NCBI GenBank assembly: GCA_963783375.1 | Contig: CAWANH010000001.1 | Span: 96,001 to 160,000, forward strand | From: Candidatus Eiseniibacteriota bacterium | GTDB taxonomy: Bacteria; Eisenbacteria; RBG-16-71-46; JABDJR01 | DNA length: 64,000 bases | Direction: 5' to 3' | Shown here: piece after piece, positions 6,819-31,452 of the stretch | How the letters are laid out: every line of letters begins with the position of its first letter | Numbering within the stretch: the first letter of the stretch is position 1 | Notes under the pieces: model-generated | Told to the model about the DNA's origin: nothing | What the model saw: only the letters and a program-made list of their open reading frames with translations | Databases searched by the model: none | Program-made: the position numbers and the translations under genes

Positions 6819-6835
6819 GTCTCCCCTCCTCCCCC

Positions 6836-9414: not shown

Positions 9415-9481
9415 GGGGAAGAGATTCCCAGGAAGCGGGCGTGGACGCAAGCGCGGGATTGCCCGCCGGGGCGGGCCGGCG

Positions 9482-10576: not shown

Positions 10577-10628
10577 CGCCCGCGCTCCCGGACATCCCAC
10601 CGCGCGAATCTCTCTCCTACGTCCGCCC

Positions 10629-12513: not shown

Positions 12514-14181
12514 CTAACGGAGGAGCACGAACTTGGCCTGGTAGGGCACCGGAAACCCCTCGAGCCGGGCCACGTAGACGCCGGCGGGCGCCATCCGGCC
12601 GGCCAGATCACGCCCGTTCCAGACCACCGTGCCGTGGCTGAGCCCGCCCGTCACCGGAAGCCGGGAGAGGAGGCGGCCGTCCGTCCCGTAGATCGCCACC
12701 GAGGGGTCCATTCCGGCCAACCCCGTCCACTCCAGCTCCGCCCGCCCCCGGGCCGGGTTTTGAAGAGCGCGGACCAGGTGCCCCATCACTCCCCCGTCGT
12801 CGGGAGGCTGGATCACCTCGTCGCCCCCCCCCGCGGCGGACAGGGCCAGCCGGTCCAGCAGGTTGGCGGTGATCCGGGCCACCGAAGGGTCGGACGCCAG
12901 CCCCTGGGCCCAGTCTATGGTGGCCGCGGTGAACACCGTCCCCCCGTCCGGGTGGACGTAGAGGCCCATGGTGGCGTTTCCCATGCTGGCCGGAGAAAGC
13001 CCCAGGATGGTGAAGCCGGCGGGAGTCCCGTCCCCGCCGGTGGCCACCGGGAGGCCGTTCTCCCAGGTGAACAGCGCCCCGTCGGTCTCGTACCCCACGA
13101 TGGTGGCGGCCCGGCCGAAGGTATCCCCGTCGGAAAGCCCGGTTCCCTCGTAGACCCAGTGGTCCGACCGGTGGACGGTGTAGCCGCCGTGACCCTGGGA
13201 GGCCGGGTAGAACCCGTGATCGTTGACGTAGCCGCCGTTCCGGTAGCTCACCCCGGTCATGGCGTTCTCGGGACGGAAGACCGGGTCGGCGTACCAGTTG
13301 ACGGTGACCCGGGACCGGTCCGTGCGGTAGAACGGATCGCGGTTCTTGTCCTTGTAGCAATAGATCCGGTCCCGCGAGTCCGAGAAGCGGATCTGCCACC
13401 AGGAAACGTTGCCGCTCAGGAAGGCGACGTTCCCGCCGGCGGCGATGCGCTCCTCCAGGTGGTCGCGCATCTCCCTGGACCAGTACTCGTCGTGACCGAC
13501 GCTCAGGAACAAGGGATATCGGGCCGGGAGATCCGGATCGTCGTGGAGGTCGACCCCGGTGCAATAGGCCACCCGATAGCCCGAGCCTTCCAGCCACCGG
13601 ATCATGGGGAGCTCCCAACTCAGGAACTGGCCCCGCCCGTCCTGGCCCTTGAACGGCCGCTGGAACGACACCACGTAGTTGTTCATGCCGCCGGGGGCGA
13701 GCGGGGTGTAGAGGCTGAACCCGCCCCAGTCGTTGTAGGCCTCCCAGGTGAGGAGCGAGGTCTGGAAGAGGATGGTCGCGTCCCGTCCCGGTTTGGCCTC
13801 CCGGACCACGAAGATCGCGTAGGCCGGGGAGGCGCCGGAGGCGTCCAGCCGCACCGTGTAGACCCCGCTCGGCCAATCCGGGGGGATCCGGACGGCGAAG
13901 GAGGGGACCCAGCCGCACCCGTCATCCCAGGGCCGCCCGGGGACCGGCTGGAGCGAGCCGGGAATCCCCGGAAGGGTCAGGTGGACCACGCCGGCCGCCC
14001 CCTCCCGGATGAAGGTCGCGTCGAAGGTGGCGGCGTCGGTGGAGACGTGGATCCGGACCGAATCGCCCGGAGCCACCGAGGTGGGCCACGCGTACCCCTG
14101 GACGGTGGCCGCGCCCGCGGGGTGGCCGAGGAGAAGAACCGCCGCCAGACCGCATCCCGCGAACCCAGCGCGCTTGTCCAT
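12514..14181 (-). CDS. Secreted N,N-dimethylformamidase beta-subunit-like protein with C-terminal FlgD-Ig/T9SS-like tail
   Basis: Signal peptide; WPSGVY, TWEAYNDWGG.SLY, VSFQRP, SVGHDEYWS, VGYETD, VFTAATIDW; tail VVWNGRDLAGR..PAGVYVARL...KFVLLR. Confidence 0.8.
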   Translation of the reverse strand: MDKRAGFAGCGLAAVLLLGHPAGAATVQGYAWPTSVAPGDSVRIHVSTDAATFDATFIREGAAGVVHLTLPGIPGSLQPVPGRPWDDGCGWVPSFAVRIPPDWPSGVYTVRLDASGASPAYAIFVVREAKPGRDATILFQTSLLTWEAYNDWGGFSLYTPLAPGGMNNYVVSFQRPFKGQDGRGQFLSWELPMIRWLEGSGYRVAYCTGVDLHDDPDLPARYPLFLSVGHDEYWSREMRDHLEERIAAGGNVAFLSGNVSWWQIRFSDSRDRIYCYKDKNRDPFYRTDRSRVTVNWYADPVFRPENAMTGVSYRNGGYVNDHGFYPASQGHGGYTVHRSDHWVYEGTGLSDGDTFGRAATIVGYETDGALFTWENGLPVATGGDGTPAGFTILGLSPASMGNATMGLYVHPDGGTVFTAATIDWAQGLASDPSVARITANLLDRLALSAAGGGDEVIQPPDDGGVMGHLVRALQNPARGRAELEWTGLAGMDPSVAIYGTDGRLLSRLPVTGGLSHGTVVWNGRDLAGRMAPAGVYVARLEGFPVPYQAKFVLLR

Positions 14182-14681
14182 CGAATCCCCCCCCCTTTCG
14201 GGGGAAAAGAGCCGCCGCATCCCGGCGGTCCGGCGCCGCCCGGTTCCCGGGGGATCCCGGTGCCGGTCCGGCGCCTCGAAACGGACCCGACCCCCAAAAA
14301 AACGCGGCGCGCACCGTGCGCAACCACGACTCACCAGGGTACTCGGGTTCGGGTGTCCTTCGCTCGGTCACTCCCGGCGCCAGGCGCCCCGGAACCTGCC
14401 GCAGTATACACCCGGGTCTCCTCCCCGGCGCGGCCGGCGGGGGCGGAAGCCCGGGAGCCCCCCGCCGAGGGTATCCGGGCTTCCGGCCGATACCGGCTGA
14501 AATTGACTTATCCAATCTCTCGTCCCCGGTCGGGCTCGCCGTCCATGGAACTGCTCGATTCGCCGGTATACAATCGGGGCCGCACGCAAGGCTCCAGCGG
14601 TTTGCCGGGTCCCCGGTCAAGGGCGGGAGGTGCGATCCAGTCGCCGGCCGCGCCGGCGGCAGCGGACAAGGAGTGTCGGGA

Positions 14682-15965
14682 ATGACCAAGCCGTTCAACT
14701 CGTTCGAGATGGCCCAGGCCCAGTTCGACTCGGTGGCCTCCCTGCTGGAACTGGAGGAGGCCGCGCGGGAGCTGCTCCGCCACCCCATGCGGGAGTACAC
14801 CTTCGCCATTCCGATCCGGCTGGACGACGGCCGGATGAAGGTGTTCCACGGGTTCCGGGTACAGCACAACGACGCCAAGGGACCGTGCAAGGGCGGGATC
14901 CGCTTCCACCCGCTGGAGACCCTGGATACCGTCCGCGCCCTGGCCATGTGGATGACCTGGAAGTGCGCGGTGGTGGACATCCCCCTGGGGGGCGGCAAGG
15001 GCGGGGTGATCTGCGATCCCCACAACCTGAGCGCGCGCGAGCAGGAATCGATCTGCCGCGGCTTCGTGCGCCGCATGGCCTACGAGATGGGGCCCAACCG
15101 GGACGTTCCCGCTCCCGACGTCATGACCTCCTCCCAGCACATGCTGTGGATGTTGGACGAGTTCGAGGCGATCCACGGCTCCAAGCAGCCCGGGTTCATC
15201 ACCGGGAAGCCGGTGGCGGTGGGCGGGTCCCAGGGACGAACCGAGGCCACCGGATTCGGGTTGATCTTCACCCTCCGCGAGGCGATGAAGGAACTGGGGC
15301 TCAGGCCCCAGGACACCGTGGCCAGCGTGCAGGGCTTCGGGAACGTCGCCCAGTACGCCATCCGGCTGTTCGATCAGATCGGCGGCCGGACCCAGGCCGT
15401 CTCCTGCTGGAACCAGGCGGATCAGACGAGCTACACCTACCGGAAGGCCGGAGGGATCGACCTGGACGAGCTCCTGAAGATCACCGACCGGTTCGGGGAG
15501 ATCCACGCCGGCCGGGCCCAGGAACTGGGCTACGAGGCGCTTCCCGCCGACGCATGGCTGGAGGAGGACGTGGACATCCTGATCCCCGCCGCCATGGAGA
15601 ACCAGATCACGGAAGAAAACGTGGGCCTGATCAAGGACCGGGTGAAGATCATCGCGGAAGGGGCCAATGGTCCCACCTCCACCGAGGCGGACGAGACGAT
15701 CCGGGCCCGGGGGATCTTCCTCATCCCCGACCTTCTGGCCAACGCCGGCGGCGTCACCTGCAGCTACTTCGAACAGGTCCAGAGCAACATGAACTACTAC
15801 TGGGACAAGGAAGAGGTCCTGGGAAAACTGGACATGAAGATGACGGCGGCGTTCCACGCGGTAAGCCGGCTGGCCAAGGAGCGCGAGCTCTACATGCGGA
15901 AGGCCGCCTACGTCATCGCCGTCGACCGGGTGGCCCAGGCCTGCCGGGACCGGGGTTGGCTGTAG
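14682..15965 (+). CDS. Glutamate dehydrogenase (Glu/Leu/Phe/Val family, archaeal/Bacillus-like clade)
   Basis: GFRVQHN, GPCKGGIRFHP, MTWKCA, GGGKGG, DVPAPDV, TGKP, GFGNVA, EGANGP, ANAGGVTCSYFE; AAGGAG RBS before ATG 14682. Confidence 0.92.
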   Translation: MTKPFNSFEMAQAQFDSVASLLELEEAARELLRHPMREYTFAIPIRLDDGRMKVFHGFRVQHNDAKGPCKGGIRFHPLETLDTVRALAMWMTWKCAVVDIPLGGGKGGVICDPHNLSAREQESICRGFVRRMAYEMGPNRDVPAPDVMTSSQHMLWMLDEFEAIHGSKQPGFITGKPVAVGGSQGRTEATGFGLIFTLREAMKELGLRPQDTVASVQGFGNVAQYAIRLFDQIGGRTQAVSCWNQADQTSYTYRKAGGIDLDELLKITDRFGEIHAGRAQELGYEALPADAWLEEDVDILIPAAMENQITEENVGLIKDRVKIIAEGANGPTSTEADETIRARGIFLIPDLLANAGGVTCSYFEQVQSNMNYYWDKEEVLGKLDMKMTAAFHAVSRLAKERELYMRKAAYVIAVDRVAQACRDRGWL

Positions 15966-16077
15966 ATCCCGGGGGCGCGCAGCCGGGGGGGAGGATCGAG
16001 TATCCGGAAGAACGGCGAGTAGGCTTCCCCGATGGGAAGACCAGGAACGGGACCGGGGGAAAGGAGGCCGTGAGATC

Positions 16078-17841
16078 ATGAGCGGTGCGGGTACCGGTCG
16101 GCCTTCAGTGCCTTATTTCCGCCGCGGCTTCTTCCGTTCCGGCGAGCCGGTGAGCCGGATCGGGGACGGGGAGATCGGCGGCAAGGCGCGGGGCCTGGTC
16201 CTGGCCCGGGACCTCCTGCGGGAGGAGTTCGCCCCGACCGCATTCCCCAACCTGGAAATCCGCGTCCCCCACCTGGTGGTTCTGGCCACCGACGTCTTCG
16301 ACGCGTTCATGGAACGGAACCACCTTCACGAAACGGCGGTGGCGGACCTCCCCGACGAGCAGATCGCCCAGGCATTCCAGGCCGCATCGCTGCCCACCGA
16401 GATCCTGGGAGATCTCCGGGTCCTGGTGGAGGAGCTTCATCTTCCGATGGCCGTTCGGTCATCCAGCCTCCTCGAGGATGCCCTCTTCCGGCCGTTCGCC
16501 GGGGTCTACGAAACGAAGATGACGCCCAACGACCAGCCGGATCCCAACGCCCGCTTCCAGAAGCTCACCGAAGCCATCAAGTTCGTCTACGCCTCGACGT
16601 TCTTCAAGGCGGCCAAGGATTACATCCGAGCCACGCGGGAGCCGGTGGAGCGGGAGAAGATGGCGGTGATCCTCCAGGAGGTCGTCGGGTCCCGCTACGA
16701 CGTCCGCTTCTACCCCACCCTTTCGGGGGTGGGGCGTTCCTACAACTTCTACCCCGGTCCGGGGGCCAGGCGCGAGGAGGGGGTGGTCGAGCTGGCCCTG
16801 GGGCTGGGCAAGACCATCGTGGACGGCGGGCTCTGCTATTCGTACTCCCCCGCGCGGCCCCAATCCCCTCCTCCCTTCGCCTCTCCCGCCGAGTTCATGC
16901 GGAACACCCAGAAGACGTTCTGGGCGGTGAACATGGGAACCCCCCCCGTCTTCAATCCCATCCTGGAGACCGAGTACCTGGGCGAGGCCGGACTGGCGGA
17001 GGCGGAGTACGACGGGACCCTGCGATTCCTCTGCTCGACCTATCTTCCCGATTCCGGACGCCTGTCCCCCGGCGTCGGCAGCCCGGGTCCGCGCGTCCTC
17101 AACTTCGCCCCGCTGCTCGTGCTCGAGGAGTACCCGTTCAACCCGGCCATCCGGGCCCTCATGGACGCGGCCGGGCGGAAGGTGGGAAAGGCGGTGGAGA
17201 TCGAGTTCGCCATGACCCTTCCCCGGTCGGATTCGTCCCAGCCCGCCCAGCTCGGGTTCCTCCAGGTCCGGCCGATGCTGGTCTCCGACCGGCCGGTCGA
17301 GGTCACCGAGAAGGAACTCGCCCGCCCGGACCTCCTCCTGGCCTCGGACAAGGTGATGGGCAACGGCTCGCTGGACACCATCGAGGACGTGGTGTACGTC
17401 AGGCCCGACACCTTCGACGCCCGGTACACGCGCACCATCTCCGAGGAGCTCGAGCGACTGAACCTCCCGCTTTTCACCGAGGCCCGGCCCTACCTCCTGA
17501 TCGGCTTCGGCCGCTGGGGGAGCTCCGATCCCTGGCTGGGCATCCCCGTCCGCTGGGGACAGATCTCCGGGGCCAAGGTCATCGTGGAGGCGACGCGGCC
17601 CGACATGAACGTGGAGGCCAGTCAGGGCTCGCACTTCTTCCACAACATCTCCAGTTTCGAGGTCGCCTACTTCATGGTGAGCCACTCCCGCTCGCCGGGC
17701 ATCGACTGGGACTGGCTGGGGGGGAACGAGATCGTCACTGAAACCGAGTTCGTCCGCCACGTCAGGCTGGCCGCCCCGCTCCGGGTCAAGGTGGACGGCC
17801 GGACGGGACGGGGGGCGGTCTGGCGCTCCTCGGAGACGTGA
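16078..17841 (+). CDS. PPDK_N/ATP-grasp (PEP synthase N-terminal-like) protein lacking the pyruvate-binding barrel
   Basis: GGKARGL, AVRSSSLLED, FAGVY, MAVILQ, GLGKTIVDG, EIEFA, LQVRP; C-terminal GRWGSSDPWLG...SQGSHFF. Confidence 0.85.
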   Translation: MSGAGTGRPSVPYFRRGFFRSGEPVSRIGDGEIGGKARGLVLARDLLREEFAPTAFPNLEIRVPHLVVLATDVFDAFMERNHLHETAVADLPDEQIAQAFQAASLPTEILGDLRVLVEELHLPMAVRSSSLLEDALFRPFAGVYETKMTPNDQPDPNARFQKLTEAIKFVYASTFFKAAKDYIRATREPVEREKMAVILQEVVGSRYDVRFYPTLSGVGRSYNFYPGPGARREEGVVELALGLGKTIVDGGLCYSYSPARPQSPPPFASPAEFMRNTQKTFWAVNMGTPPVFNPILETEYLGEAGLAEAEYDGTLRFLCSTYLPDSGRLSPGVGSPGPRVLNFAPLLVLEEYPFNPAIRALMDAAGRKVGKAVEIEFAMTLPRSDSSQPAQLGFLQVRPMLVSDRPVEVTEKELARPDLLLASDKVMGNGSLDTIEDVVYVRPDTFDARYTRTISEELERLNLPLFTEARPYLLIGFGRWGSSDPWLGIPVRWGQISGAKVIVEATRPDMNVEASQGSHFFHNISSFEVAYFMVSHSRSPGIDWDWLGGNEIVTETEFVRHVRLAAPLRVKVDGRTGRGAVWRSSET

Positions 17842-17920
17842 TCGCAACTTGCGGCCGGGACGCCGGCCCGCACCGACACGCATTCCACGGGTTCCGAGTC
17901 CCTAACCGAAGTTGGACACG

Positions 17921-20900
17921 ATGACCGACATGGACAAGTCGACCGAGAAGCTCCTGGCCGCGCTCCACGAACGGGCCAAGGAGCTCAACTGCCTGTATCG
18001 GGTGGACGAGATCCTGAGCTGGCAGGACGTCCCCGAGGACACCGTCTACCGGGCCCTGGTGGACGCGCTGCCCCCGGGATGGCAGTACCCCGAGGTCTGC
18101 CAGGCCCGCATCACCATCGGATCCGAGGTCTACCAGAGCGAGGGCTACCGGGAATCCCCCTGGACCATGCGGACCGAGATCGAGGTTCAGAGCGAGGTGG
18201 TGGGTGAGATCACGGTCTCGTACACCGAGGATAAGCCCCCCTCCCACGAGGGACCCTTCCTCAAGGAGGAGTTCCGGCTCATCGACGCCATCAGCGAGCG
18301 GATCGCGCTCTTTCTCATCCAGAAGCGCGTCCGCACCCATCACGAGAGCTGGCAAACCGCGGTGGAAGAACTCTCGTCCACCGAGCGCAAGCCGTGGGCG
18401 GTGCTGCTCGACTTCCTCCAGCAGACCGACCCGAGCCTCCTCCAGCGCATCACCCGGAAGATGATCAATCACCTGTGCTGGAACGGGGTGACCGAGGCCA
18501 ACGCCCTTCTCCAGGAAGGGCCGCCGGACGAGACGCAGCCTTCCTCCGAGGAGAAGGACGAGAACTGGCCCCAGCAGAAGCGCCGGCCCACCGACTCCAA
18601 GGATCTCACCCGTCGCACTTTCGAGATCGCCCTCCGACACCTCCGCGAAGAGGACGTGGTCCGGAGCATCCAGGCCTGGATCAACGAAGAGAACTCGACG
18701 TTCCTCATCAAGTCGCTGGAGAACCCGGGGACCGGTCTGGCCGAGCTGGCGGAGGCGGTCCGTCGTTTCCAGAACGCGGGCATCGAGGAGTCCGAGCTCG
18801 CCCCCGCGGTGGCCATGAGCCTCCGGGTGGCCCTCCTCCGGCGGTTCTTCGTGGACCAGCTCGAGTTCATCAACGTGGCCAAGGTCTACGTGGAGGTGAA
18901 GGACTTCTACGATCTGGTCCAGCGCATCATCTACCCGTCCCGGAGCCAGGGGAAGCTGGGCGGGAAAGGGGCGGGGCTCTTCCTGGCGGTCCAGGTCATC
19001 CGCAAATCGGACGAGTTCGCCGACGTTCTCAAGAACTTCAAGGTTCCCAAGACCTGGTACGTGGCCTCGGACGGGATCCTCGACTTCATCCAGCACAACA
19101 ACCTGAACGAGGTCTACAACCGCAAGTACATGGAGATCGAGCGGGTTCGCCAGGACTATCCGCACATCATCCAGCTGTTCAAGAACTCGGAGTTCACCTC
19201 CGAGCTCGTCAAGGGGTTGGCCGCCGCGCTGGACGACTTCGAGGACCGGCCCCTCATCGTCCGCAGCTCCAGCATGCTGGAGGACCGGGTGGGATCGTCC
19301 TTCTCGGGAAAGTACAAGAGCCTCTTCCTCGCCAATCAGGGGACGAAGAAGGCGCGCCTGGAAGCACTCCTCGACGCCATCGCCGAGGTCTACGCATCGG
19401 TGTTCGGACCCGACCCCATCGAGTACCGGGCCCAGCGGGGACTCCTCGATTTCCGGGAAGAGATGGGAATCATGATCGAGGAGGTCGTGGGCACCCGCGT
19501 CGGCCGGTACTTCTTCCCGGCGTTCTCCGGAGTCGCCTTCTGCAACAACGAATTCCGGTGGTCTCCGCGAATCAAGATGGCGGACGGCCTGGTGCGGATG
19601 GTCCCCGGCCTGGGGACCCGGGCGGTGGATCGGCTGGGGGACGACTACCCGGTGCTGATCTCTCCGGGACAACCCGGATTGCGGATCAACGTGACCCCGG
19701 ACGAGATCCTCCGCTACTCCCCCAAGATGATGGACGTCATCAACCTGGAGAGCGATTCCTTCGAGACCGTGGACGTGAGGGAAGTGCTCCGGGAGTACGG
19801 GGACTCGTACCCGGGGGCGCGCCGGCTGGTCTCCATGGTCGAGGAGGATCGGATCCGGGAGCCGCAGGGCCTGGAGCCGGACTGGGAGAAGGACGATCTC
19901 GTGGTCACCTTCGAGACCCTCCTCTCCCGCACCCCGTTCATCGGTCAGATCCACTCCCTGTTGAAGCTGCTTCGGGAGAAGCTGGGAATGCCGGTGGACA
20001 TCGAGTTCGCCCACGACGGCCAGGACCTCTACCTGCTCCAGTGCCGCAGCCAGAGCGGTTCCGAGGAGCACGCCCCGGCTTCGATCCCCCGCGACCTGCC
20101 GCGGGACAAGATCCTGTTCTCGGCCCGGCGATACGTGAGCAACGGACGCATCTCGAACATCACCCACGTGGTGTACGTGAACCCGGAGACCTACGGGGAC
20201 ATCTCCGACCGGCAGAAGCTCCGGGACGTGGCCCGCGCGGTGGGGAAGCTCAACACCGTCCTTCCCAAGCGGCAGTTCATCCTCATGGGCCCGGGGCGTT
20301 GGGGCAGCCGGGGAGACGTCAAGCTCGGGGTCGGCGTGACCTACTCGGACATCAACAACACCGCGATCCTGATGGAGATCGCCCGCCGGAAGGGGAACTA
20401 CGTTCCCGAACTCTCCTTCGGGACGCACTTCTTCCAGGATCTGGTCGAATCGGACATCCGTTATCTCCCCCTCTACCCGGATGAGGAGGGCATCGACTTC
20501 AACGAGCTGTTCTTCACCCGGTCCCGCAACATCCTGCCCGAGATCCTGCCCCAGTTCGCGCACGTCGCCGATACGGTGCGGGTCATCGACGTGCCCAAGG
20601 AGACCGGCGGAAACGTGATCGAGGTGCTCATGAACTCCGACCTGGACGAGGCGATCGGGGTGCTGGGACGACCGGATCAGGCCGGCGAGGAACCGATGAT
20701 ATCCCACGACGCCTCCACCCCGTCGCCTCAGAATCACTGGCGCTGGCGGATGCGCATGGCCCGGAGAATCGCCCGGCACCTCGACCCCGAACGCTTCGGG
20801 GTCAAGGCCGTCTACATCTTCGGCAGCACGAAGAACGGGACCGCGGGCCCGAAGAGCGACATCGATCTCCTGATCCACGTGGAGGCGAGCGAGGCGCAGT

Positions 20901-21106
20901 CCGAGGCCCTCACCACCTGGCTGGACGGCTGGAGCCGGGCACTGGCCGAGATGAACTACCTGCGGACCGGCTATGCCACCCAGACCCTGCTCGACCCCCA
21001 CTTCGTGACCGACCGGGACATCGCGGACAAGACGAGCTATGCCGCGAAGATCGGGGCGGTGACCGACAGCGCCAAGGCCCTGCCCTTGGGACCGCAGGGG
21101 ACCTGA
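17921..21106 (+). CDS. GAF-like + PPDK_N/ATP-grasp + nucleotidyltransferase-domain protein
   Basis: N-term LHERAKELNCLY...PPGWQYPE...GPFLKEE; GGKGAGL, IVRSSSMLED, FSGKY, GLGTRAVD, DIEFA, LLQCR, GRWGS, SFGTHFF; C-term YIFGS...SDIDLLI (Pol-beta-type GS/DxD). Confidence 0.85.
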   Translation: MTDMDKSTEKLLAALHERAKELNCLYRVDEILSWQDVPEDTVYRALVDALPPGWQYPEVCQARITIGSEVYQSEGYRESPWTMRTEIEVQSEVVGEITVSYTEDKPPSHEGPFLKEEFRLIDAISERIALFLIQKRVRTHHESWQTAVEELSSTERKPWAVLLDFLQQTDPSLLQRITRKMINHLCWNGVTEANALLQEGPPDETQPSSEEKDENWPQQKRRPTDSKDLTRRTFEIALRHLREEDVVRSIQAWINEENSTFLIKSLENPGTGLAELAEAVRRFQNAGIEESELAPAVAMSLRVALLRRFFVDQLEFINVAKVYVEVKDFYDLVQRIIYPSRSQGKLGGKGAGLFLAVQVIRKSDEFADVLKNFKVPKTWYVASDGILDFIQHNNLNEVYNRKYMEIERVRQDYPHIIQLFKNSEFTSELVKGLAAALDDFEDRPLIVRSSSMLEDRVGSSFSGKYKSLFLANQGTKKARLEALLDAIAEVYASVFGPDPIEYRAQRGLLDFREEMGIMIEEVVGTRVGRYFFPAFSGVAFCNNEFRWSPRIKMADGLVRMVPGLGTRAVDRLGDDYPVLISPGQPGLRINVTPDEILRYSPKMMDVINLESDSFETVDVREVLREYGDSYPGARRLVSMVEEDRIREPQGLEPDWEKDDLVVTFETLLSRTPFIGQIHSLLKLLREKLGMPVDIEFAHDGQDLYLLQCRSQSGSEEHAPASIPRDLPRDKILFSARRYVSNGRISNITHVVYVNPETYGDISDRQKLRDVARAVGKLNTVLPKRQFILMGPGRWGSRGDVKLGVGVTYSDINNTAILMEIARRKGNYVPELSFGTHFFQDLVESDIRYLPLYPDEEGIDFNELFFTRSRNILPEILPQFAHVADTVRVIDVPKETGGNVIEVLMNSDLDEAIGVLGRPDQAGEEPMISHDASTPSPQNHWRWRMRMARRIARHLDPERFGVKAVYIFGSTKNGTAGPKSDIDLLIHVEASEAQSEALTTWLDGWSRALAEMNYLRTGYATQTLLDPHFVTDRDIADKTSYAAKIGAVTDSAKALPLGPQGT

Positions 21107-21140
21107 CCCGGCCCGAGCGCGAACCGGGGAGCCGGAGGGG

Positions 21141-22016
21141 CTAGATCAGGATCCGGGAAGCCGCCTCGAGATCCTCCAGGTCGAACCGGACCAGCGCGAG
21201 CTCGGGTCCGTCGTGGGCCGCTCCCATGATGGAGGTCCGGCCCAGCTTCTGCCGCCAAGCCCCGGTCAACCCCGCCGACTCGTGGATGTGACCGTGCAGG
21301 GTGAGAAGCGGCTGGCGCTCATCGATGAAGCGGCGTATGGCCAGACTTCCCACGTGGAGGTCGAGCGGGACGTGGTCCACCATCTTTCCGTCCAGGGCGG
21401 CGCGGTCGAGCGCGGTCTCGTGCGGCGGCGCGTGAAACAGGAATACGGCGTCCTCCAGGGATCGCCCGTCGACGAGCTTCCGCAGGTCCTCCTGGATCGT
21501 GGCGTACCGGACCTCGTTGGCGGGCACCGGAACGGTTCTCCGTCCTTCCTCCGGTGAGACGCATCCGGGAGGGATGTACCGGGAAACGTCGTACTTCTCC
21601 CAGTCCTTGAGCGCGAACGGAGTGGGCGGGACGTAGGCGTATCCGTACACGGTATGACGGCCCATCGGGAAGCGGCCGCCGTGGGCGCAGGTCCACAATC
21701 CCCCGCTCTCCCCCTCCAGGAACGACGGTTCCTCGATCCTCGCGTCGTCGTTCCCGGGGATGAGAAAGACCCGGGGATACCGGGATCCCATCCCTTCCCG
21801 CAACCGCCGGAATTCCGGGAGCAGGAAGTCGTGCAGAAAATCGGGGTATCGCGTCTCCGTGGCGAAACCGGCGCCCTGGCCGAAAGGGAGGAGATCCCCG
21901 CCGAGAAAGACCATCCCCGGCCGATCGGTCTCGATCGCCCGCGAGAGCTTCCGGAATCGGTCGACCCGGCCGTGGACGTCCGACACGAAGAGGCAAAGGC
22001 TGTTCCCGGATTCCAT
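21141..22016 (-). CDS. Metallophosphoesterase (calcineurin-like)
   Basis: SDVHG, GGD, PGNDD, FHAPP, LHGHIHE; GGAG RBS before ATG 22016. Confidence 0.88.
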   Translation of the reverse strand: MESGNSLCLFVSDVHGRVDRFRKLSRAIETDRPGMVFLGGDLLPFGQGAGFATETRYPDFLHDFLLPEFRRLREGMGSRYPRVFLIPGNDDARIEEPSFLEGESGGLWTCAHGGRFPMGRHTVYGYAYVPPTPFALKDWEKYDVSRYIPPGCVSPEEGRRTVPVPANEVRYATIQEDLRKLVDGRSLEDAVFLFHAPPHETALDRAALDGKMVDHVPLDLHVGSLAIRRFIDERQPLLTLHGHIHESAGLTGAWRQKLGRTSIMGAAHDGPELALVRFDLEDLEAASRILI

Positions 22017-22201
22017 TGGCGTCTCCACGTGCGATGTCTCCTGCCGGCTCGACCGGCGATCGCGCCGGTTTCCGGACGCCCCGATGCGCTCGCGTCGAGG
22101 GGCCGCATCATCCTACGCCATCACCCCTCCCGCGCGCCCTCGGCTGCCGGACGCGGCGACATCCCCCTCTTCATTCATGACAAGAACGGGCTGCTATCAC
22201 G

Positions 22202-22230
22202 TTGACACGCCCCACCGCGGGCGCTAGGGT
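22202..22230 (+). promoter_or_regulatory. Putative sigma70 promoter for gdhA
   Basis: TTGACA-17 bp-TAGGGT, about 210 bp upstream of the gdhA start. Confidence 0.55.
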
Positions 22231-22421
22231 TCGCTGGTTCGAAATCGTAGAGTAGTTCCACGAACCGGGCTCCGAGATCCGGAAACGGCGACGGGTGGTT
22301 GGGTACGGGAATCTCCGGACCGCGGTCCACCGGCGGAATCGGATACGAGCTGGGGCCGATTAGCTGGAACTCCGGCCGCCGCGGCCCGGGTGGGGTCCGG
22401 TGGGTACATCAAGGGGCTTAG

Positions 22422-23806
<1,385 letters not shown>

Positions 23807-23831
23807 TCGCCCGGATCTGAGCCTGTATCAT

Positions 23832-23866
23832 CGCGGAGTGCCCATCTGAACGATCGGCACTCCGCG
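23832..23866 (+). terminator. Stem-loop after gdhA (terminator or mRNA stabiliser)
   Basis: CGCGGAGTGCC-13 nt-GGCACTCCGCG, perfect 11-bp stem; weak U-tail. Confidence 0.55.
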
Positions 23867-23887
23867 TTCATATTCGGGGGAAACGAC

Positions 23888-26857
23888 ATGTCGACCGATT
23901 TTCGGGACCCGGAGCAGGTTCACAGCAAGCCCAGGCTGCGACGGTTCCAGGACCTGATGCGCCAACGGGTCCAGAACATCCTCCTGGTCTCGAGCCTCTA
24001 CGACTCATTCATCCTTGCCGAGGACGGACAGCTCAACGAGGCGCTCCTTCGCGAGTACATCGAGCTCAACCTGAGCCAGAACCCGGATCTCACCCGGGTT
24101 TCCACCGGGGCCGAGGCGGTGGCGCTGGCCCGCGCCAACCCGCGATTCGACCTGATCGTCACCACCCTGCGGGTGCAGGACATGAACGCGGTGGACCTCG
24201 CCCGGAACCTCCGGGAGGCCGGCCTCGACATACCCGTCGTGGTGCTGGCCTACAACAATCGCTCCCTCACCGATTTCGTGGCCCGCCACGACATCACCCC
24301 GCTGGAGAGGATCTTCCTCTGGCAGGGCGACGTCCGGGTGCTGCTGGCCATGGTCAAGTACGTGGAGGACCGGCGGAACGTCGCCCACGACTCGGGGAAG
24401 CTGGGGGTCCCGGTGGTCATCGTGGTGGAGGACAACATCCGCTTCTACTCGTCCTTTCTTCCCGTTATCTACTCCGAGCTGCTCAACCACACCCACAACC
24501 TGATCCGCGAGGGGCTGAGCCTGGCCCAGAAGATGATGCGCATCCGGGCGCGTCCCAAGGTCCTCCTCTGCACGACCTACGAGGAAGCCTGGCAGTACTT
24601 CTCCGCCTACGAGGATCAGGTGCTCGGGGTCATTTCCGACATCGAGTTCCCGCACGGCGGAAAGCTCGATCGACGCGCGGGGCTCGACCTGATCACCCGC
24701 ATCTCGGCGCTCCAGCCCGACGTGCCGATCGTCCTGCAATCGAGCATCCCAGGGAACGAGAACCTGGCCCGGTCCGCGGGCGCATCGTTCCTGCTCAAGG
24801 GCTCCCCGGTGCTGCTCCATGATCTGCGCCGGATCCTCAAGGATCATTTCGGATTCGGCGACTTCGTCTTTCGCACCCCGGACGGCCGGGAGATCGACCG
24901 CGCTCACGACCTGGGGTCGTTGATCGAGAAGCTCCGGACCGTGCCCGCGGAATGCCTCGCCTTCCACGGCGAGCGGAATCACATCTCGAACTGGCTCAAG
25001 GCGCGGACCGAGTTCGCGCTGGCCGAGGCCCTCCGCCCCCGCAAGGTCTCGGATTTTCCCGACCTCGAGTCCATGCGCCGGGAAGTGGTGCGGAGCATCA
25101 CCGAGTACCGGCAGGAGTGGGAACGGGTCATCGTGGCCGACTTCGACCGAAACCGGTACGACCCCCTCATCAGCATGGCCCGGATCGGAGGGGGCTCGCT
25201 GGGGGGAAAGGCGCGGGGGCTGGCGTTCGTCAACCGCCTGCTCAGCGAGTCCGACTGGGGCGAGCAATACCCCGGGGTCCGGGTGCTGGTCCCGTTCAGC
25301 GTGGTCCTGGGCACCGACATCTTCGACCAGTTCCTGGAACGGAACGACCTGCGTGACTTCGCCATCGAGGAGGCCTCGGACGAGGCGATCGAACGACGCT
25401 TCCTGGCCGCGTCGTTCCCCGAGGACACCGTGGAGGATCTGACCGCTTTCCTCCGCGGGGTCCGCTGTCCCCTGGCCGTCCGCTCCTCCGGCCTGCTGGA
25501 GGATTCCCCGAACCAGCCTTTCGCCGGCGTATATCGCACGCTCATGATCCCCAACAACGACGAGAGCGAAGAGCGCCGCATGAGTCAGCTGCTGGCGGCG
25601 GTGAAGCTCGTCTACGCCTCGACCTTCTGCGCCACGGCCAAATCGTTCCTGGAGATGACCCCATATCGCCTCGAGGAGGAGAAGATGGCGGTGATCATCC
25701 AGAAACTGGTCGGCTCCCCCCACGGGAACCGTTTCTATCCGGACTTCGCCGGGGTTGGACGCTCGTACAACTTCTACCCGACCGCTCCCCAGACCGCCGA
25801 GGACGGGGTGGTTGCGGTGGCCCTGGGCATGGGAAAGACGGTAGTGGACGGGGGTTCGAGCCTCCGATTCAGCCCCCGCTACCCCCGCCACCTGGTCACC
25901 CAGTCCAACGTGAAGGACGTGCTCAACAACTCCCAGCGCGAATTCTACGCGCTGGACCTGGACGCGCCCGCGGACGGGACCGCGAACCCGGGGTCCGAGC
26001 TGACCGCCTACGATTTGAGGGTGGCCGAGGAGGACGGGACGCTGGCCGCGCTGGCCTCCACCTACTCCCCCGAGAACGACGCGGTGTACGACGGGACCTC
26101 GCGTCCCGGATTCCGAGTGGTCAGCTTCGCGCCCATCCTCAAGCACGAGATCTTCCCCCTGGCCGAGCTCCTGGACGAGCTGCTCCGCCTGGGCGCCCGC
26201 GGGTGCAGCGCGCCGGTGGAGGTGGAGTTCGCGGTCAACCTCACCGTTCCCCCGGGGTCCCCGGTGGAATTCGGGTTCCTCCAGATGCGCCCCCTGGCCC
26301 TGTCCCGGGAACTGGAGGAGCTGGAAATCGGCCACGTGGACTCCTCGGACCTGATCTGCCGGAGCACCAAGGTGATGGGAAACGGCAAGGTCACCGATCT
26401 CAGGGACGTGGTGGTGGTGGACTACCACCGTTTCGAGCGCGCGCGGAGCGTCGAGGTGGCGGAAATCCTCGCCCGCGTCAACTCCCGGCTCCACGCCCAG
26501 GGCCTCCCCTACCTGCTCATCGGCGTGGGCCGCTGGGGCTCCGCCGACCCGTACCTGGGCATTCCGGTCTCCTGGAGCCAGATCGCCGGCGCGCGGATCA
26601 TCGTGGAGGCGGGTTTCAAGGACATTCGCGTCACCCCCTCCCAGGGAACCCACTTCTTCCAGAACATCACCAGCTGCAACGTGGGGTACTTCACCGTGAA
26701 CCCCGAGGCCGGTGACGGAATCCTGGACTGGGACTGGTTGAACGAGCAGCCCGCGCTGGACGAGGAGGACTGCGTCCGCCACGTCCGGCTCCAACGGCCG
26801 CTGGTGGTGAAGATGAGCGGGAAGAAAGGAGAGGGGGTCATCCTGAAGCCGGTGTAG
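23888..26857 (+). CDS. Receiver-domain + PPDK_N/ATP-grasp protein lacking the pyruvate-binding barrel
   Basis: Degenerate REC (ILLVSS...FDLIVTT) and second REC (IVVED...VISDIEFP); GGKARGL, AVRSSGLLED, FAGVY, MAVIIQ, EVEFA, LQMRP, GRWGSADPYLG, SQGTHFF. Confidence 0.87.
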   Translation: MSTDFRDPEQVHSKPRLRRFQDLMRQRVQNILLVSSLYDSFILAEDGQLNEALLREYIELNLSQNPDLTRVSTGAEAVALARANPRFDLIVTTLRVQDMNAVDLARNLREAGLDIPVVVLAYNNRSLTDFVARHDITPLERIFLWQGDVRVLLAMVKYVEDRRNVAHDSGKLGVPVVIVVEDNIRFYSSFLPVIYSELLNHTHNLIREGLSLAQKMMRIRARPKVLLCTTYEEAWQYFSAYEDQVLGVISDIEFPHGGKLDRRAGLDLITRISALQPDVPIVLQSSIPGNENLARSAGASFLLKGSPVLLHDLRRILKDHFGFGDFVFRTPDGREIDRAHDLGSLIEKLRTVPAECLAFHGERNHISNWLKARTEFALAEALRPRKVSDFPDLESMRREVVRSITEYRQEWERVIVADFDRNRYDPLISMARIGGGSLGGKARGLAFVNRLLSESDWGEQYPGVRVLVPFSVVLGTDIFDQFLERNDLRDFAIEEASDEAIERRFLAASFPEDTVEDLTAFLRGVRCPLAVRSSGLLEDSPNQPFAGVYRTLMIPNNDESEERRMSQLLAAVKLVYASTFCATAKSFLEMTPYRLEEEKMAVIIQKLVGSPHGNRFYPDFAGVGRSYNFYPTAPQTAEDGVVAVALGMGKTVVDGGSSLRFSPRYPRHLVTQSNVKDVLNNSQREFYALDLDAPADGTANPGSELTAYDLRVAEEDGTLAALASTYSPENDAVYDGTSRPGFRVVSFAPILKHEIFPLAELLDELLRLGARGCSAPVEVEFAVNLTVPPGSPVEFGFLQMRPLALSRELEELEIGHVDSSDLICRSTKVMGNGKVTDLRDVVVVDYHRFERARSVEVAEILARVNSRLHAQGLPYLLIGVGRWGSADPYLGIPVSWSQIAGARIIVEAGFKDIRVTPSQGTHFFQNITSCNVGYFTVNPEAGDGILDWDWLNEQPALDEEDCVRHVRLQRPLVVKMSGKKGEGVILKPV

Positions 26858-27054
26858 TTCCCGGGCGCCGGCGCTCCGACCCGCGAGGGGCCCGCCCCGG
26901 GTCGCGCGCGGCGGCCTCCTGCCTCTAACCCGATACGCTCTGTCATCTTTGGCCGGGGAATGCTATTCTGGATCCTTGTCAGTAACAGTTTATTCCCCTT
27001 GAAGTTAGGGTCGGATCGCCCGCGCCGCGCCCCGTCCGGCCGCACCGAGGTTCC

Positions 27055-28661
27055 ATGGACGTCCTGGAGACCCACGTCAACACCGCCGATCCCGGCTACC
27101 GGGAGAACCGCGCCCGCATGGAGGCCCTGGTGGCCGAGCTCGGCGAGAACGTGGCCGCCGCCCGCCGGGGCGGCTCGGAGAAGGCCCACCGCCGGCACTC
27201 CGAGCAGGGAAAGCTCTTCGTGCGGGAGCGCCTGAAGCGCCTCCTCGACCCCGAGACCCCGTTCCTCGAGCTCTCCCCCCTCGCCGCCCACGGGCTCTAC
27301 GACGGGGGGGCGCCCGCCGCCGGCCTGGTCACCGGGATCGGCCGGGTGAGCGGACGCGAGGTCATGATCGTGGCCAACGACGCCACCGTCAAAGGCGGGA
27401 CCTACTTCCCGCTCACGGTGAAGAAGCACCTCCGGGCCCAGGAGATCGCCATGGAGAACCGGCTTCCCTGCGTCTACCTCGTGGACTCGGGGGGGGCCTT
27501 TCTCCCCCTCCAGGACGAGGTGTTCCCCGATCGCGACCACTTCGGGCGCATCTTCTACAATCAGGCCCGCATGTCGGCGGCGGGGATCCCCCAGATCGCT
27601 TCGGTCATGGGGTCCTGCACCGCGGGCGGGGCCTACGTCCCCGCCATGAGCGACGAGGTGGTGATCGTCAAGGGCACGGGAACCATCTTTCTGGGCGGGC
27701 CGCCCCTGGTGAAGGCGGCCACCGGGGAGGAGGTCACCGCCGAGGAACTGGGAGGGGCCGACGTCCACGCACGGAAGAGCGGGGTGGCCGATCACTACGC
27801 GGTGGACGACGATCACGCGCTGCACCTGGTGCGCACCATCGTGGCCGATCTCAACCTGAAGCCCCGGGAGCCCGAGGACCGTCTCCCCCCCGAGGATCCC
27901 CTCTACGATCCCCGGGAGATCTACGGCATCATGCCCGCCGACTTCCGCAAACCCTTCGACGTGCGGGAGGTGGTGGCCCGGATGGTCGACGGGAGCCGGT
28001 TCCACGAGTTCAAGGAGCGCTACGGCGGCACCCTGGTCACCGGCTTCGCCCGTATCCACGGATACCTGGTGGGCATCCTGGCCAACAACGGGGTCCTCTT
28101 CTCGGAGAGCGCGCTCAAGGCGGCGCACTTCATCACCATGGCCGACAAGCGGCGCATCCCCCTGGTTTTCCTCCAGAACATCACCGGGTTCATGGTGGGG
28201 AAGGCCTACGAGGAGGGGGGCATCGCCAAGGACGGGGCCAAGATGGTGCACGCGGTGGCCAACGCCACCGTTCCCCGCTTCACCGTGATCATCGGCGGCT
28301 CCTTCGGGGCCGGGAACTACGGGATGTGCGGGCGCGCCTACCAGCCCCGCCAGCTGACCATGTGGCCGGGGGCCCGGATCTCGGTCATGGGGGGGAGCAG
28401 GCGGCCATGGTGCTGGCCCAGGTGAAGGAAGAACAGCTTGCCCGTTCCGGCCGGACCTGGACCGCGGAGGAACGGGACGCGTTCATGGCCCCGACCCTCG
28501 AGAAGTACGAACGGGAGGGGAGCCCCTACTACTCCACCGCCCGGCTCTGGGACGACGGCGTCATCGATCCCGTTGAGACCCGGGGGCACCTGGCCCTGGG
28601 CATCGCCGCCTCCTACAACGGCCCCTGGGAAGAGCCCAGGATGGGCATCTTCCGGATGTGA
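27055..28661 (+). CDS. liuB: Methylcrotonyl-CoA carboxylase carboxyltransferase subunit; frameshift in G-run near 28390
   Basis: [57 protein letters not shown]; C-terminus [11 protein letters not shown]...GIFRM in the adjacent frame. Confidence 0.88.
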
Positions 28662-28671
28662 GGAACCGATC

Positions 28672-29463
28672 ATGCCGGAGCGCGAACCGCTGAGGATCGA
28701 CCGCCGCGGCCCGGTGGCCCGGGTGGTCCTGAACCGGCCCGCCATCCACAACGCCTTCGACGACGTCCTCGTCCGCTCCCTGACCGCGGCCGCTCACGAC
28801 CTGGGGGCCGACCCCGGGGTCCGGGTGGTGGTCCTGGCCGGCGAGGGGAAGTCCTTCTGCGCGGGAGCCGACCTCAACTGGATGAAGCGGATGGTGGACT
28901 ACCGACCCGAAGAGAACCGTCGCGACTCCGAGGCCCTGGCCCGGATGTTCGAAGCGCTGGACGCCCTTCCCCGTCCGGTGGTGGGCCGCATCCATGGGGC
29001 GGCCATCGGCGGAGGGACCGGCCTGGTGGCGGTGTGCGACGTCGCGGTGGCTTCGTCGGAGGCGGTGTTCGGCTTCAGCGAGGTGCGGCTGGGGATCCTC
29101 CCCGCGGTGATCTCCCCGTTCGTGCTGGCCAAGATCGGCGCCGCCGCCGCCCGGGATCTCTTCCTGACCGGCGACCGTTTCGACGCGGCCCGCGCCCACG
29201 AGATCGGCCTCGTCCAGCGGGTAACCGATCCCGAGGCCCTCGATGCCGGCGTGGAGCGGATCGTGGCCTCGCTCCTCCACGGGGGACCGGAAGCCCAGGC
29301 CCGGATCAAGCGGCTCATCCCGGAGGTGGCGGGGCGCTCTCCCGCGAACGCCCGGGAGACGACCGCCGAAGCCATCGCCGAGGCCCGGGCCGGGGCCGAG
29401 GGCCAGGAGGGCATGCGCGCGTTTCTGGAACGCCGCCCCGCGCGCTGGCGGGAGGACGGCTGA
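28672..29463 (+). CDS. liuC: Enoyl-CoA hydratase (methylglutaconyl-CoA hydratase-like)
   Basis: LNRP..HNAF, FCAGADL, GAAIGGG, FSEVRLGILPA, EGQEGMRAFLERR; operon context. Confidence 0.85.
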   Translation: MPEREPLRIDRRGPVARVVLNRPAIHNAFDDVLVRSLTAAAHDLGADPGVRVVVLAGEGKSFCAGADLNWMKRMVDYRPEENRRDSEALARMFEALDALPRPVVGRIHGAAIGGGTGLVAVCDVAVASSEAVFGFSEVRLGILPAVISPFVLAKIGAAAARDLFLTGDRFDAARAHEIGLVQRVTDPEALDAGVERIVASLLHGGPEAQARIKRLIPEVAGRSPANARETTAEAIAEARAGAEGQEGMRAFLERRPARWREDG

Positions 29464-29464
29464 G

Positions 29465-30958: not shown

Positions 30959-30959
30959 C

Positions 30960-31442
30960 GTGGAGGTGAAGCTCAACCGGGAAGGCGAGGTCTTCCGGGC
31001 ACGCCGCGACGCGCCCGGCGAGATCACGGTGCTCGGTCCGGACGAACCTGCGAGGTCGATCACCGTGCTCCGGCTCCCCGACGGGAGCTATGCGGTGGAG
31101 ACCCCGACCGGCCGTCACCACGCCGAAGCGGCCCGGGAAGGCGAGACGATCTGGGTCCGCTGGCGGGGGCGCACCTACTGTTTTCAGATGGACCGCGGGC
31201 GCGGACGGGCCCGGGACTTGGGTGGAGGCCTGGCTTCTCCCATGCCGGGGCAGGTGCAGAAGGTGCTGGTCGCGACGGGAGACGCGGTGGAAACGCACCA
31301 GCCGTTGGTGGTGGTCGAGGCCATGAAGATGCAGCTCGAGATCAAGGCCCCGCGCGCGGGGCGGGTGAAACGGTTGCTCGCCGCCGAGGGGGACCAGGTC
31401 GCGGCGGGAGCGCCCCTGGTGGAGATGGAGGAGACCCCGTGA
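30960..31442 (+). CDS. Biotin carboxyl carrier protein
   Basis: ASPMPG.V, VEAMKMQ biotinylation motif. Confidence 0.85.
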   Translation: MEVKLNREGEVFRARRDAPGEITVLGPDEPARSITVLRLPDGSYAVETPTGRHHAEAAREGETIWVRWRGRTYCFQMDRGRGRARDLGGGLASPMPGQVQKVLVATGDAVETHQPLVVVEAMKMQLEIKAPRAGRVKRLLAAEGDQVAAGAPLVEMEETP

Positions 31443-31452
31443 ACCCCTCGTC

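Follow-up and report, generated by a model that had tools for sequence, protein, structure and literature searches.

Organization of the locus

The locus occupies positions 14,682 to 26,857 of a 64,000-nucleotide stretch of DNA, here called the window. It comprises six genes, two of which encode glutamate dehydrogenases (GDHs), the enzymes that join carbon and nitrogen metabolism; three others, A, B and C, share a dikinase-like core.

14682-15965, + strand: gdh2, with Pfam ELFV domains; a distinct family-II-like glutamate dehydrogenase subfamily
16078-17841, + strand: A, 587 aa; PPDK_N is the only Pfam match; a bare core of ATP-grasp and swivel-like His domain (His519)
17632..17634, + strand: conserved-His codon of A (SQGSHFFHN); encodes His519, which 90% or more of the 138 rows share
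17912-21106, + strand: B, 1064 aa; Pfam PPDK_N and NTP_transf_2; in order, GAF, helical linker, ATP-grasp, His domain and minimal Pol-beta nucleotidyltransferase (NTase)
20426..20428, + strand: conserved-His codon of B (SFGTHFFQD); invariant in 50/50 rows; His839, or His835 if counting starts at codon 17924
21141-22028, - strand: calcineurin-like metallophosphoesterase (PF00149), of a subfamily that tracks B
22443-23806, + strand: gdhA, family-I glutamate dehydrogenase
23888-26857, + strand: C, 989 aa; Pfam Response_reg and PPDK_N; in order, pseudo-receiver, receiver (Asp251), helical region, ATP-grasp and His domain (His922)
26651..26653, + strand: conserved-His codon of C (SQGTHFFQN); His922, at the motif position

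Genes, order and strands agree with the initial annotation, which had read the block as one interleaved system. That view gives way to two separable modules that are often unlinked: gdh2, A and B facing the phosphoesterase, and gdhA followed by C. The window and genomes G001 and G002 have all six genes in this order; elsewhere the modules are rearranged or apart, so an obligatory six-gene system was rejected. In gdhA, a single inserted base near 22900 and another near 23012 break the gene, which the initial annotation had not noted. Because gdhA is intact in the same-genus G001 and G002, and both sites are covered by a contig of run X1 that is nearly identical (178 bases, with 1 other letter and 2 gaps), these are most likely assembly errors and we do not regard gdhA as a true pseudogene. 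No Rfam RNA family matched within 13500-27500.

A shared dikinase-like core

The ATP-grasp motifs GGK, VRSS..ED, F(A/S)GxY, EFA and LQxR are found in A, B and C as originally described, and K36, R127, Q200, E376, Q396, R398 and H519 (A numbering) are each kept by 90% or more of the 138 rows. In a fold search the model of A (pLDDT 94) matched 5hv1 with Z 25.8 (rmsd 2.7, 285 aligned); the family fold is closer to rifampin phosphotransferase (RPH, Z 25.8) than to PPDK (Z 12.6), with HpeI (9goj) at Z 18.4. The ATP-grasp of A ends near residue 400 and its His domain begins near 412, leaving no substrate-binding domain in cis. Residues 412-586 matched the PPDK phosphoryl-carrier 2fm4 at a middling Z of 6.7 (rmsd 3.9, 117/128 aligned), and the S-H-helix pattern of this tail, matched by eye, appears as GGMTSHAAVVAR in the genome's own full PPDK. 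The His motif is remodelled to SxG[ST]HFF in the family. Row conservation and the fold match of the A tail bear out the proposed swivel-like domain with its conserved His: in A, B and C alike, the core ends with a domain similar to the PPDK swivel. Pfam at E values up to 10 matched neither the His domains nor the B N-terminus.

The C-terminal PEP/pyruvate TIM barrel is missing, as had been noted; PEP-utilizers_C is unmatched, and the modelled structures of A and B have no space left for it. A plain PEP synthase or PPDK was rejected, since NCBIfam PEP synthase scores were 23-51 bits against cut-offs of 598-740 and a full PPDK lies elsewhere in the genome. For the same reasons it is highly improbable that these proteins form a split PEP synthase with its barrel in trans, the gdh neighbourhood reflecting carbon-nitrogen operon logic only. 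The database label of PEP/pyruvate-binding domain proteins would favor such an enzyme, but a barrel-motif scan of the genome returned only two matches, neither near the locus, and no barrel gene recurs in the neighborhood.

Accessory domains of B and C

The GAF-like N-terminus of B is confirmed by a fold match to 3cit (Z 12.8, rmsd 2.2, 123 aligned); Atlas leads to GAF for this region were all below 0.9. The closest solved structure to B reaches at best 21% identity, and none is close. The NTase matches PF01909 (E 2.4e-10), and its GS, DxD and distal D are each shared by 90% or more of the 47 B sequences, in line with the suggested nucleotidylation activity in that the site is intact. The NTase domain was missing among the 50 rows listed in the whole-B fold search.

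C does have the two receiver domains initially assigned; the first, however, is a pseudo-receiver with Thr93 at the phospho-acceptor position. Asp251 and Lys304 are retained only in receiver 2, where both are conserved. Stand-alone receiver-type genes adjoin divergent cores in four loci (L027, L028, L032, L050). HisKA and HATPase_c gave no Pfam matches, which places the proteins outside canonical two-component histidine kinases. Databases label these proteins as PEP/pyruvate-binding domain proteins or, for C homologues, as histidine kinase, and such labels can mislead metabolic models.

Two partnerships with distinct GDHs

Genes were counted by hand in a phylum sample of 125 genomes, where 73 of the 124 other genomes come from two families and are therefore kin rather than independent. 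The gdh2 subfamily was present in all 42 genomes with a full B (41 directly, and G021 as frameshifted pieces), and the two genes share a contig in 40 of these. Only 1 of the 125 genomes has gdh2 alone and 82 have neither. Similarly, 63 of 64 genomes with C have gdhA, in 21 cases not within about 5 kb, and 13 of 76 gdhA genomes are without C. The phosphoesterase subfamily goes with an NTase-bearing B in 37 of 38 genomes, and in G291, G292 and G294 it is present together with B though on another contig.

We also examined named loci, which are the 78 strongest among 608 matches to A and so not a random sample. In these, gdh2 is found in 37/39 loci with B and NTase, the phosphoesterase in 23/30 such loci with room for it, and the NTase in 28/29 phosphoesterase loci. 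A gdh gene occurs in 36/41 named loci of at least 15 kb, compared with about 0.011 expected per random 16-kb window in this genome. The presence of gdh in these loci is not chance. Co-occurrence across genomes and neighborhood counts were among the checks that the initial annotation had named, and both uphold the link to GDH. Altogether, the partnerships are specific to the paralogue: gdh2 goes with B and the phosphoesterase, gdhA with C. Joint gain and loss is expected for any operon.

Among 1435 unclassified ORFs of loci L021-L118, no acceptor-type, barrel, HpeH-like, pathway or regulator gene was recurrent. The commonest other neighbor, a single protein type found in 13 loci, is presumably an NfnA/GltD-like protein.

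The DxH, GGD, GNDD, H and HGHxHE motifs of the phosphoesterase are conserved in 42 locus sequences. It had been proposed as the eraser of the whole system. Its partnership with the NTase-bearing B stands; as it tracks that protein and none of 14 long C-only loci contains it, it does not serve A, B and C as a common eraser, and a role as eraser for C is unsupported.

The best PDB match of gdh2 is 1euz, and a 5-6 residue insertion in its coenzyme loop (SCWNQAD) is subfamily-specific. Residues K70, K94, K106, D146, R186 and S361, which we take to be the catalytic and glutamate-binding positions, are kept in 41-45 of 45 partner rows. His114 and Met148 are present in 45/45 partner GDHs versus 2/21 and 1/21 other GDHs, a comparison set that includes 4 family-I GDHs and 1 degenerate GDH from a cassette. 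Both are missing from the single gdh2-like enzyme found where the genome lacks B, that of G295, which lies at a contig end. At L077, a catalytically degenerate GDH copy that has both residues sits immediately ahead of A.

Predicted docking of B on gdh2

Complex prediction, suggested earlier as a check on the GDH link, points to direct contact between B and gdh2. With a single gdh2 chain and B 490-1060, the prediction passed with a score of 0.65, the best of 3 controls reaching 0.00. The pass mark is a rough one, with own alignments used, and was reached by 116/157 solved pairs and 2/215 mismatched pairs; 7/44 blind neighbor pairs passed the same test according to the tool's text. At least 62% of contacts are common to the runs, and partner pLDDT is at least 77. 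The predicted interface on gdh2 covers 113-119 and 145-152, adjoining the catalytic Asp146, so that B is predicted to span the lip of the active-site cleft. On the B side it consists mostly of ATP-grasp loops (546-549, 583-597, 640-643); the His loop touches gdh2 in the model through Gly833, two residues ahead of the His. The conserved His itself and the NTase are not among the confident contacts. The interface is enriched neither in subfamily-specific GDH residues (3/19 vs 43/427 overall) nor in conserved B residues (mean 0.67 vs 0.70). This predicted patch offers concrete residues to mutate.

A signal relay with no action on GDH itself would leave this predicted contact unexplained. In such a relay, gdh expression or other targets would be controlled by His-to-Asp transfer to receiver domains, or by a nucleotide messenger that the NTase synthesizes and the phosphoesterase degrades. 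The conserved Asp251 and Lys304 of receiver 2, the stand-alone receiver-type genes beside divergent cores and the shared travel of NTase and phosphoesterase are all consistent with it. However, A and B have no receiver, none of the proteins has a Pfam match to a DNA-binding or output domain, and the neighborhood shows no recurrent regulator; we consider a relay of this kind quite unlikely.

Relation to known systems

The closest characterised case for A, B and C is VadK (Rv1127c) of Mycobacterium tuberculosis, which likewise has an ATP-binding and a His domain without a barrel. According to the available text of that study, VadK autophosphorylates its His, associates with methylcitrate-cycle enzymes and is proposed to act by binding on methylcitrate synthase; phosphate transfer to partners is not described in that text (PMC13400623). 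As described there, VadK is PPDK-derived, consists of just those two domains and has the methylcitrate cycle as its target, which sets it apart; A, B and C differ in their SxG[ST]HFF motif, their GAF, receiver and NTase domains and their GDH partner.

The VadK model is one argument for a non-covalent switch, in which phosphorylation of the His (in C also of the receiver Asp) would set the shape of the regulator, B or C seated on the cleft would inhibit or activate GDH, and it would be the regulator itself that the NTase marks and the phosphoesterase clears. An interface made mainly of ATP-grasp loops, rather than of the His or NTase, fits this reading, as does the degenerate GDH with His114 and Met148 directly ahead of A. 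It is nevertheless somewhat unlikely, given the contact of the His-loop Gly833 with GDH and the dedicated phosphoesterase that accompanies B even from another contig.

With RPH (5HV1) and HpeHI (9GOJ), A, B and C share the ATP-grasp fold, the swivel His and the lack of a PEP barrel. In those enzymes, a domain that binds the small molecule is part of the same chain or of a second subunit, whereas A, B and C contain none and no such subunit recurs among the unclassified ORFs of L021-L118; an unlinked one may exist. The acceptor site can lie on a second chain in HpeHI, according to the available text (PMC12167813). This, docking predicted at the substrate cleft and the small-molecule dikinases as nearest folds (5hv1 Z 25.8; HpeI 9goj Z 18.4) would fit dikinases or ligases that activate 2-oxoglutarate, glutamate or a nucleotide, with GDH as the acceptor-binding or channelling subunit. 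We regard this as unlikely: interchangeable GAF and receiver heads with an NTase tail are suited to signalling, the neighborhood has no recurrent HpeH-like or other pathway gene, and the catalytic residues of gdh2 are those of an ordinary GDH. PEP synthase and PPDK also have PPDK_N followed by a swivel-like His domain, but they carry the TIM barrel that A, B and C lack; the family scores of A, B and C are far below cut-offs, and the genome has a separate full PPDK.

GlnE and GlnD tie a Pol-beta-type NTase to a nitrogen-assimilation enzyme, together with a removing activity, and their chains have paired NTase domains, or HD and ACT domains. B resembles them in its Pol-beta NTase, whose site keeps GS and three acidic residues, in its link to a nitrogen enzyme and in its accompanying remover. 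Unlike them, it has one NTase domain of ~125 aa on a dikinase-like protein, a separate calcineurin-like remover and a link to GDH; Pfam finds no paired NTase, HD or ACT domains in B. Since the NTase is outside the confident interface, the analogy to GlnE stays an analogy.

Mammalian GDH is inactivated by AMPylation (SelO on GLUD1) at Tyr464 in the antenna, as given in the available text (PMC12375108). SelO-GLUD1 is therefore a precedent for a nucleotidyl mark that switches off a GDH, with a writer unrelated to B. To our knowledge, bacterial GDHs lack the antenna, and we know of no dedicated covalent GDH regulator in bacteria. Our literature searches found no description of these modules or of a covalent bacterial GDH regulator; the main text of a Prevotella ruminicola paper does not contain the word 'dikinase', and co-regulation data from that study may be relevant to the proposed switch.

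A proposed GDH switch

The reading we favor, at a probability of roughly 0.45, is sensor-gated covalent phosphotransfer onto GDH, reversed by the phosphoesterase. A, B and C belong, as barrel-less members, to the PEP-synthase/rifampin-phosphotransferase dikinases and, from the chemistry of that family, would likely autophosphorylate the conserved His with ATP. Docked on the cognate GDH (predicted for B on gdh2), they would likely hand the phosphate to GDH and switch its activity, and the phosphoesterase would likely remove the mark. His114, Ser117 and Thr149, which are conserved and lie in or beside the docking patch, are candidate acceptors. Family chemistry also suggests gating by the GAF domain in B or by receiver Asp251 in C, and a second, nucleotidyl mark placed by the C-terminal domain of B on GDH or the complex.

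Direct control of GDH, whether covalent or non-covalent, is probable. Each gdh has its own putative sensor enzyme and B is predicted to dock, which points to a likely undescribed GDH switch in many bacteria. More tentatively, the proteins may represent a wide class of protein kinases built from a dikinase ATP-grasp and a swivel His, which would covalently switch bacterial GDHs with the beta-phosphate of ATP, each paralogue having its own sensor and GDH, and one adding a nucleotidyl mark and a dedicated eraser. From the initial interpretation, the GDH link, the His, the NTase site and the predicted B contact are retained; the single system and the general eraser are not. If true, the switch would supply the missing covalent control of GDH, a counterpart to that of glutamine synthetase by GlnE, and could account for old reports of trans-acting GdhA control in gut Bacteroides.

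Distribution

We estimate that the A/B/C family motif occurs in about 13,000 stretches of the species-level genome collection. A family member is present in 74/81 Bacteroidales genomes searched. C lies beside gdh genes in the named gut bacteria Parabacteroides distasonis and Phocaeicola massiliensis, which makes the idea testable in culturable organisms. The link is looser in Bacteroidales, with gdh in 7/20 loci of 9-13 kb. In an ambiguous lead from Bacteroides (G288), gdhA is followed first by a catalase gene and then by C, which lies on the opposite strand.

Gene order and protein architecture

The locus consists of two modules. In one, the glutamate dehydrogenase (GDH) gene gdh2 is followed by A, B and a convergent phosphoesterase gene; in the other, a second GDH gene, gdhA, is followed by C. 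A, B and C encode PPDK_N (dikinase-type ATP-grasp) proteins.

Genes of the locus
14682-15965: gdh2, glutamate dehydrogenase
16078-17841: A, barrel-less PPDK_N protein
17912-21106: B, barrel-less PPDK_N protein with a C-terminal nucleotidyltransferase (NTase)
21141-22028, minus strand: calcineurin-like phosphoesterase, convergent with B
22443-23806: gdhA, glutamate dehydrogenase
23888-26857: C, barrel-less PPDK_N protein with receivers

The initial annotation had placed these six genes correctly, and its reading that A, B and C all carry the ATP-grasp motifs and that none has a barrel was confirmed. Identity between A and C is 43% across 579 residues, and B is 26-30% identical to either. The gdhA frame is interrupted twice by an extra base, near 22900 and near 23012. 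Because gdhA is unbroken in two genomes of the same genus with the identical six-gene order (G001, G002), and because a near-identical 178-base contig from sequencing run X1 covers both breaks and differs by two gaps and one further letter, the breaks are most likely assembly errors.

The structure model of A (pLDDT 94) aligned with rifampin phosphotransferase (Z 25.8, rmsd 2.7, 285 residues aligned), HpeI (Z 18.4) and maize PPDK (Z 12.6). Residues 412-586 gave a middling match to the PPDK phosphoryl-carrier domain 2fm4 (Z 6.7, rmsd 3.9, 117/128), and this carrier-like domain holds the motif SxG[ST]HFF. His519 of A is present in at least 90% of 138 alignment rows, and the conserved His of B (His839 counted from codon 17912, His835 from codon 17924) is invariant in 50. 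The motif occurs in 64/64 C-type ORFs, 50/51 B+NTase ORFs and 66/73 A-type or other core (ATP-grasp plus His domain) ORFs; those without it are fragments or divergent cores, except one B. The GAF-like start claimed for B was borne out by a fold match (Z 12.8, rmsd 2.2, 123 aligned), and its C-terminus is a minimal nucleotidyltransferase with GS, DxD and a third Asp conserved in 47 sequences. In the first receiver of C, Thr occupies the position of the acceptor Asp; the second retains Asp251 and Lys304. The nearest relative of gdh2 is the family-II GDH 1euz; gdh2 retains the catalytic residues, and its coenzyme loop carries an insertion of 5-6 residues.

The modules recur with glutamate dehydrogenase

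Scanning 3/64 parts of a species-level genome collection with an alignment of A yielded 608 confirmed relatives; for the whole collection, the estimate is ~13,000 such stretches. Among the best 78 loci of these 608, gdh was present in 61, and in 36 of the 41 loci of at least 15 kb. Within the same 78, gdh2 accompanied 37 of 39 B+NTase loci, both misses lying at contig starts. The phosphoesterase was found in 23/30 B+NTase loci with room for it, and 28 of 29 phosphoesterase loci had the NTase. Long C-only loci contained gdhA in 9 of 14 cases and the phosphoesterase in 0/14. Records with gdh2 and B were named Planctomycetota, Acidobacteriota, Ignavibacteria, Bacteroidota, Alpha- and Gammaproteobacteria, Eisenbacteria, Krumholzibacteriia, Aminicenantes, Chrysiogenia and Spirochaetaceae; several such loci lack A (L038, L039, L081, L085, L086, L089, L092).

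The same 125 genomes of the phylum were searched five times and tallied by hand. Full B (at least 59% identity) and the gdh2 subfamily were each found in 42 genomes. Both occur together in 41 genomes and neither in 82, and the pair is patchy inside genera (e.g. 2/3 and 3/4 other genomes). In G021, full B adjoins a frameshifted gdh2, and in G295 a gdh2-like gene lies at the end of a contig and B is absent. G013 and G020 were set apart as having only a shorter B-like paralogue (44-47%); the phosphoesterase subfamily is also absent from both. Of the 125 genomes, 64 have C and 76 have gdhA, including 63 of the 64 with C; in these 63, the two lie within ~5 kb in 42 and farther apart or on another contig in 21. 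The close phosphoesterase subfamily (at least 52% identity) occurs in 38 genomes, of which 37 also have B, and is absent from 5 B genomes. Since related genomes are not independent samples, and operons are gained and lost as units, these counts show a tight partnership, not a mechanism. That C and gdhA also occur together when not adjacent, as do the phosphoesterase and B in G291, G292 and G294, speaks against simple hitch-hiking.

Among the other neighbours, the most frequent, present in 13 loci, resembles an NfnA/GltD-type redox protein. NfnA/B-like and NuoE-like redox genes are repeated neighbours of the modules, in 5-13 loci (L028, L066, L070, L074, L088, L090, L104, L106, L107, L111 and others), and may point to a connection with NADPH supply.

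A predicted complex and a possible phosphotransfer mechanism

As the tightest genomic link, gdh2-B was chosen for complex prediction, using one gdh2 chain and the part of B from residue 490 to 1060 (numbered from codon 17924). The contact proposed for B and GDH was predicted with a score of 0.65, the best of three controls scoring 0.00; the pass mark was reached by 116/157 solved complexes and 2/215 mismatched pairs, rates that apply only roughly here because our own alignments were used. Contact agreement between runs was at least 62% and partner pLDDT at least 77. The predicted interface comprises gdh2 residues 48-49, 113-119, 145, 148, 150-152, 177, 179, 187 and 270-271 and B residues 546-549, 583-597, 640-643 and 833. 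B would dock at the cleft lip of gdh2 beside the catalytic Asp146, with Gly833 two residues ahead of the conserved His. His114 and Met148 occur in 45/45 partner GDHs and in 2/21 and 1/21 other GDHs, and both are lost in the G295 GDH, a single case; the interface overall showed no enrichment in subfamily-specific or conserved residues. The model is support for B-gdh2 binding, not proof of it. Docking at the cleft could also serve a non-covalent switch, which we regard as a doubtful but real alternative. The NTase is absent from the confident contacts of the predicted complex. That the proteins form a relay or make a messenger acting elsewhere seems decidedly unlikely.

In PPDK, RPH and HpeHI, the ATP-grasp domain charges a swivel His, and the phosphate must pass on to an acceptor. 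We found no acceptor domain in A, B or C, none nearby, and no recurrent acceptor-type gene among neighbours of the examined loci. RPH is built like these proteins but has a substrate domain, which they lack. That they activate a metabolite as GDH's partner is judged unlikely. A split PEP synthase is highly improbable, and a full-length PPDK is encoded separately on contig C3 of the genome that carries the locus. In mode of working, A, B and C would resemble VadK, for which His autophosphorylation has been shown (PMC13400623).

Since no acceptor was found in cis or nearby, GDH is the constant partner and the His loop is modelled against GDH, we prefer covalent phosphorylation of GDH, with a probability of roughly 0.45. 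The ATP-grasp domain would charge the swivel His, which would hand the phosphate to the partner GDH under gating by the GAF or receiver head; in the gdh2 module only, the phosphoesterase would reverse the mark.

Feature tests rejected membership of A, B and C among PEP synthases, canonical histidine kinases and GlnE/GlnD. The modules are real and widespread, and A, B and C are probably a new form of dikinase-derived regulator; our literature search, which covered subscription and older papers thinly, found no description of a barrel-less dikinase family with GDH.

Bacteroidales

The core is present in 74/81 Bacteroidales genomes and in 61/61 of one genus. We found gdh in 16 of 19 loci mostly from this genus (L190-L208) and in only 7/20 loci of wider Bacteroidales. 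In Parabacteroides distasonis and Phocaeicola massiliensis records, C is divergent from one gdh, and another lies a few kb farther along. In G288, by inference a Bacteroides-like genome, malic enzyme and gdhA are followed by a catalase convergent with C, which diverges from a second gdh (names read from translations). C is therefore a candidate for the trans-acting control of GdhA described in old gut Bacteroides reports, as is the catalase. Bacteroides fragilis GDH is reportedly inactivated reversibly; no paper on this was among those that our literature search covered. Many Bacteroidales genomes, G089, G101 and G106 among them, encode another C paralogue of greater length (open frames ~1150-1550 aa), whose additional N-terminal region is GAF-like, judging from its similarity to B in L127 and L164.

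Variant forms and flanking genes

At L067:2415-2789, a stand-alone 125-aa nucleotidyltransferase, which may be real or a misassembly, takes B's place between A and the phosphoesterase. L077 has a degenerate GDH copy (6700-7965) immediately 5' of A, having lost K94, K106 and D146 and retained His114, Met148 and the coenzyme-loop insertion; intact gdh2 lies beyond the phosphoesterase. Four loci (L027, L028, L032, L050) show a split form, with a stand-alone receiver-type gene adjoining a divergent core of 555 aa in which the standard His motif is missing. Short B-like paralogues, which have a GAF-type start and the core but no NTase, occur in L035, L036, L088, L095 and L026:13837-16266, adjoining gdhA in the first three. 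P0121, P0123 and P0125 (1523-1654 aa, two core matches apiece) are probably fusions of A and B, or read-throughs. The genome of the window has a fourth PPDK_N region (G000:C29:1167536-1169754, L120), which is divergent, appears frameshifted, follows an ORF with a His-domain-like motif and has no gdh match alongside.

On the minus strand of the window, 8122-10708 holds two ORFs, presumably a LuxC-like acyl-CoA reductase and a LuxE-like acyl-protein synthetase, without obvious luciferase neighbours, and 12514-14334 encodes a secreted-looking DMFA2_C (N,N-dimethylformamidase beta-like) protein divergent from gdh2. Straight after C, a leucine-catabolism-type cluster (27055-32387) encodes carboxyltransferase, enoyl-CoA hydratase, biotin carboxylase, biotin carrier and HMG-CoA lyase; at least two of these genes seem to be frameshifted, consistent with errors in the assembly.
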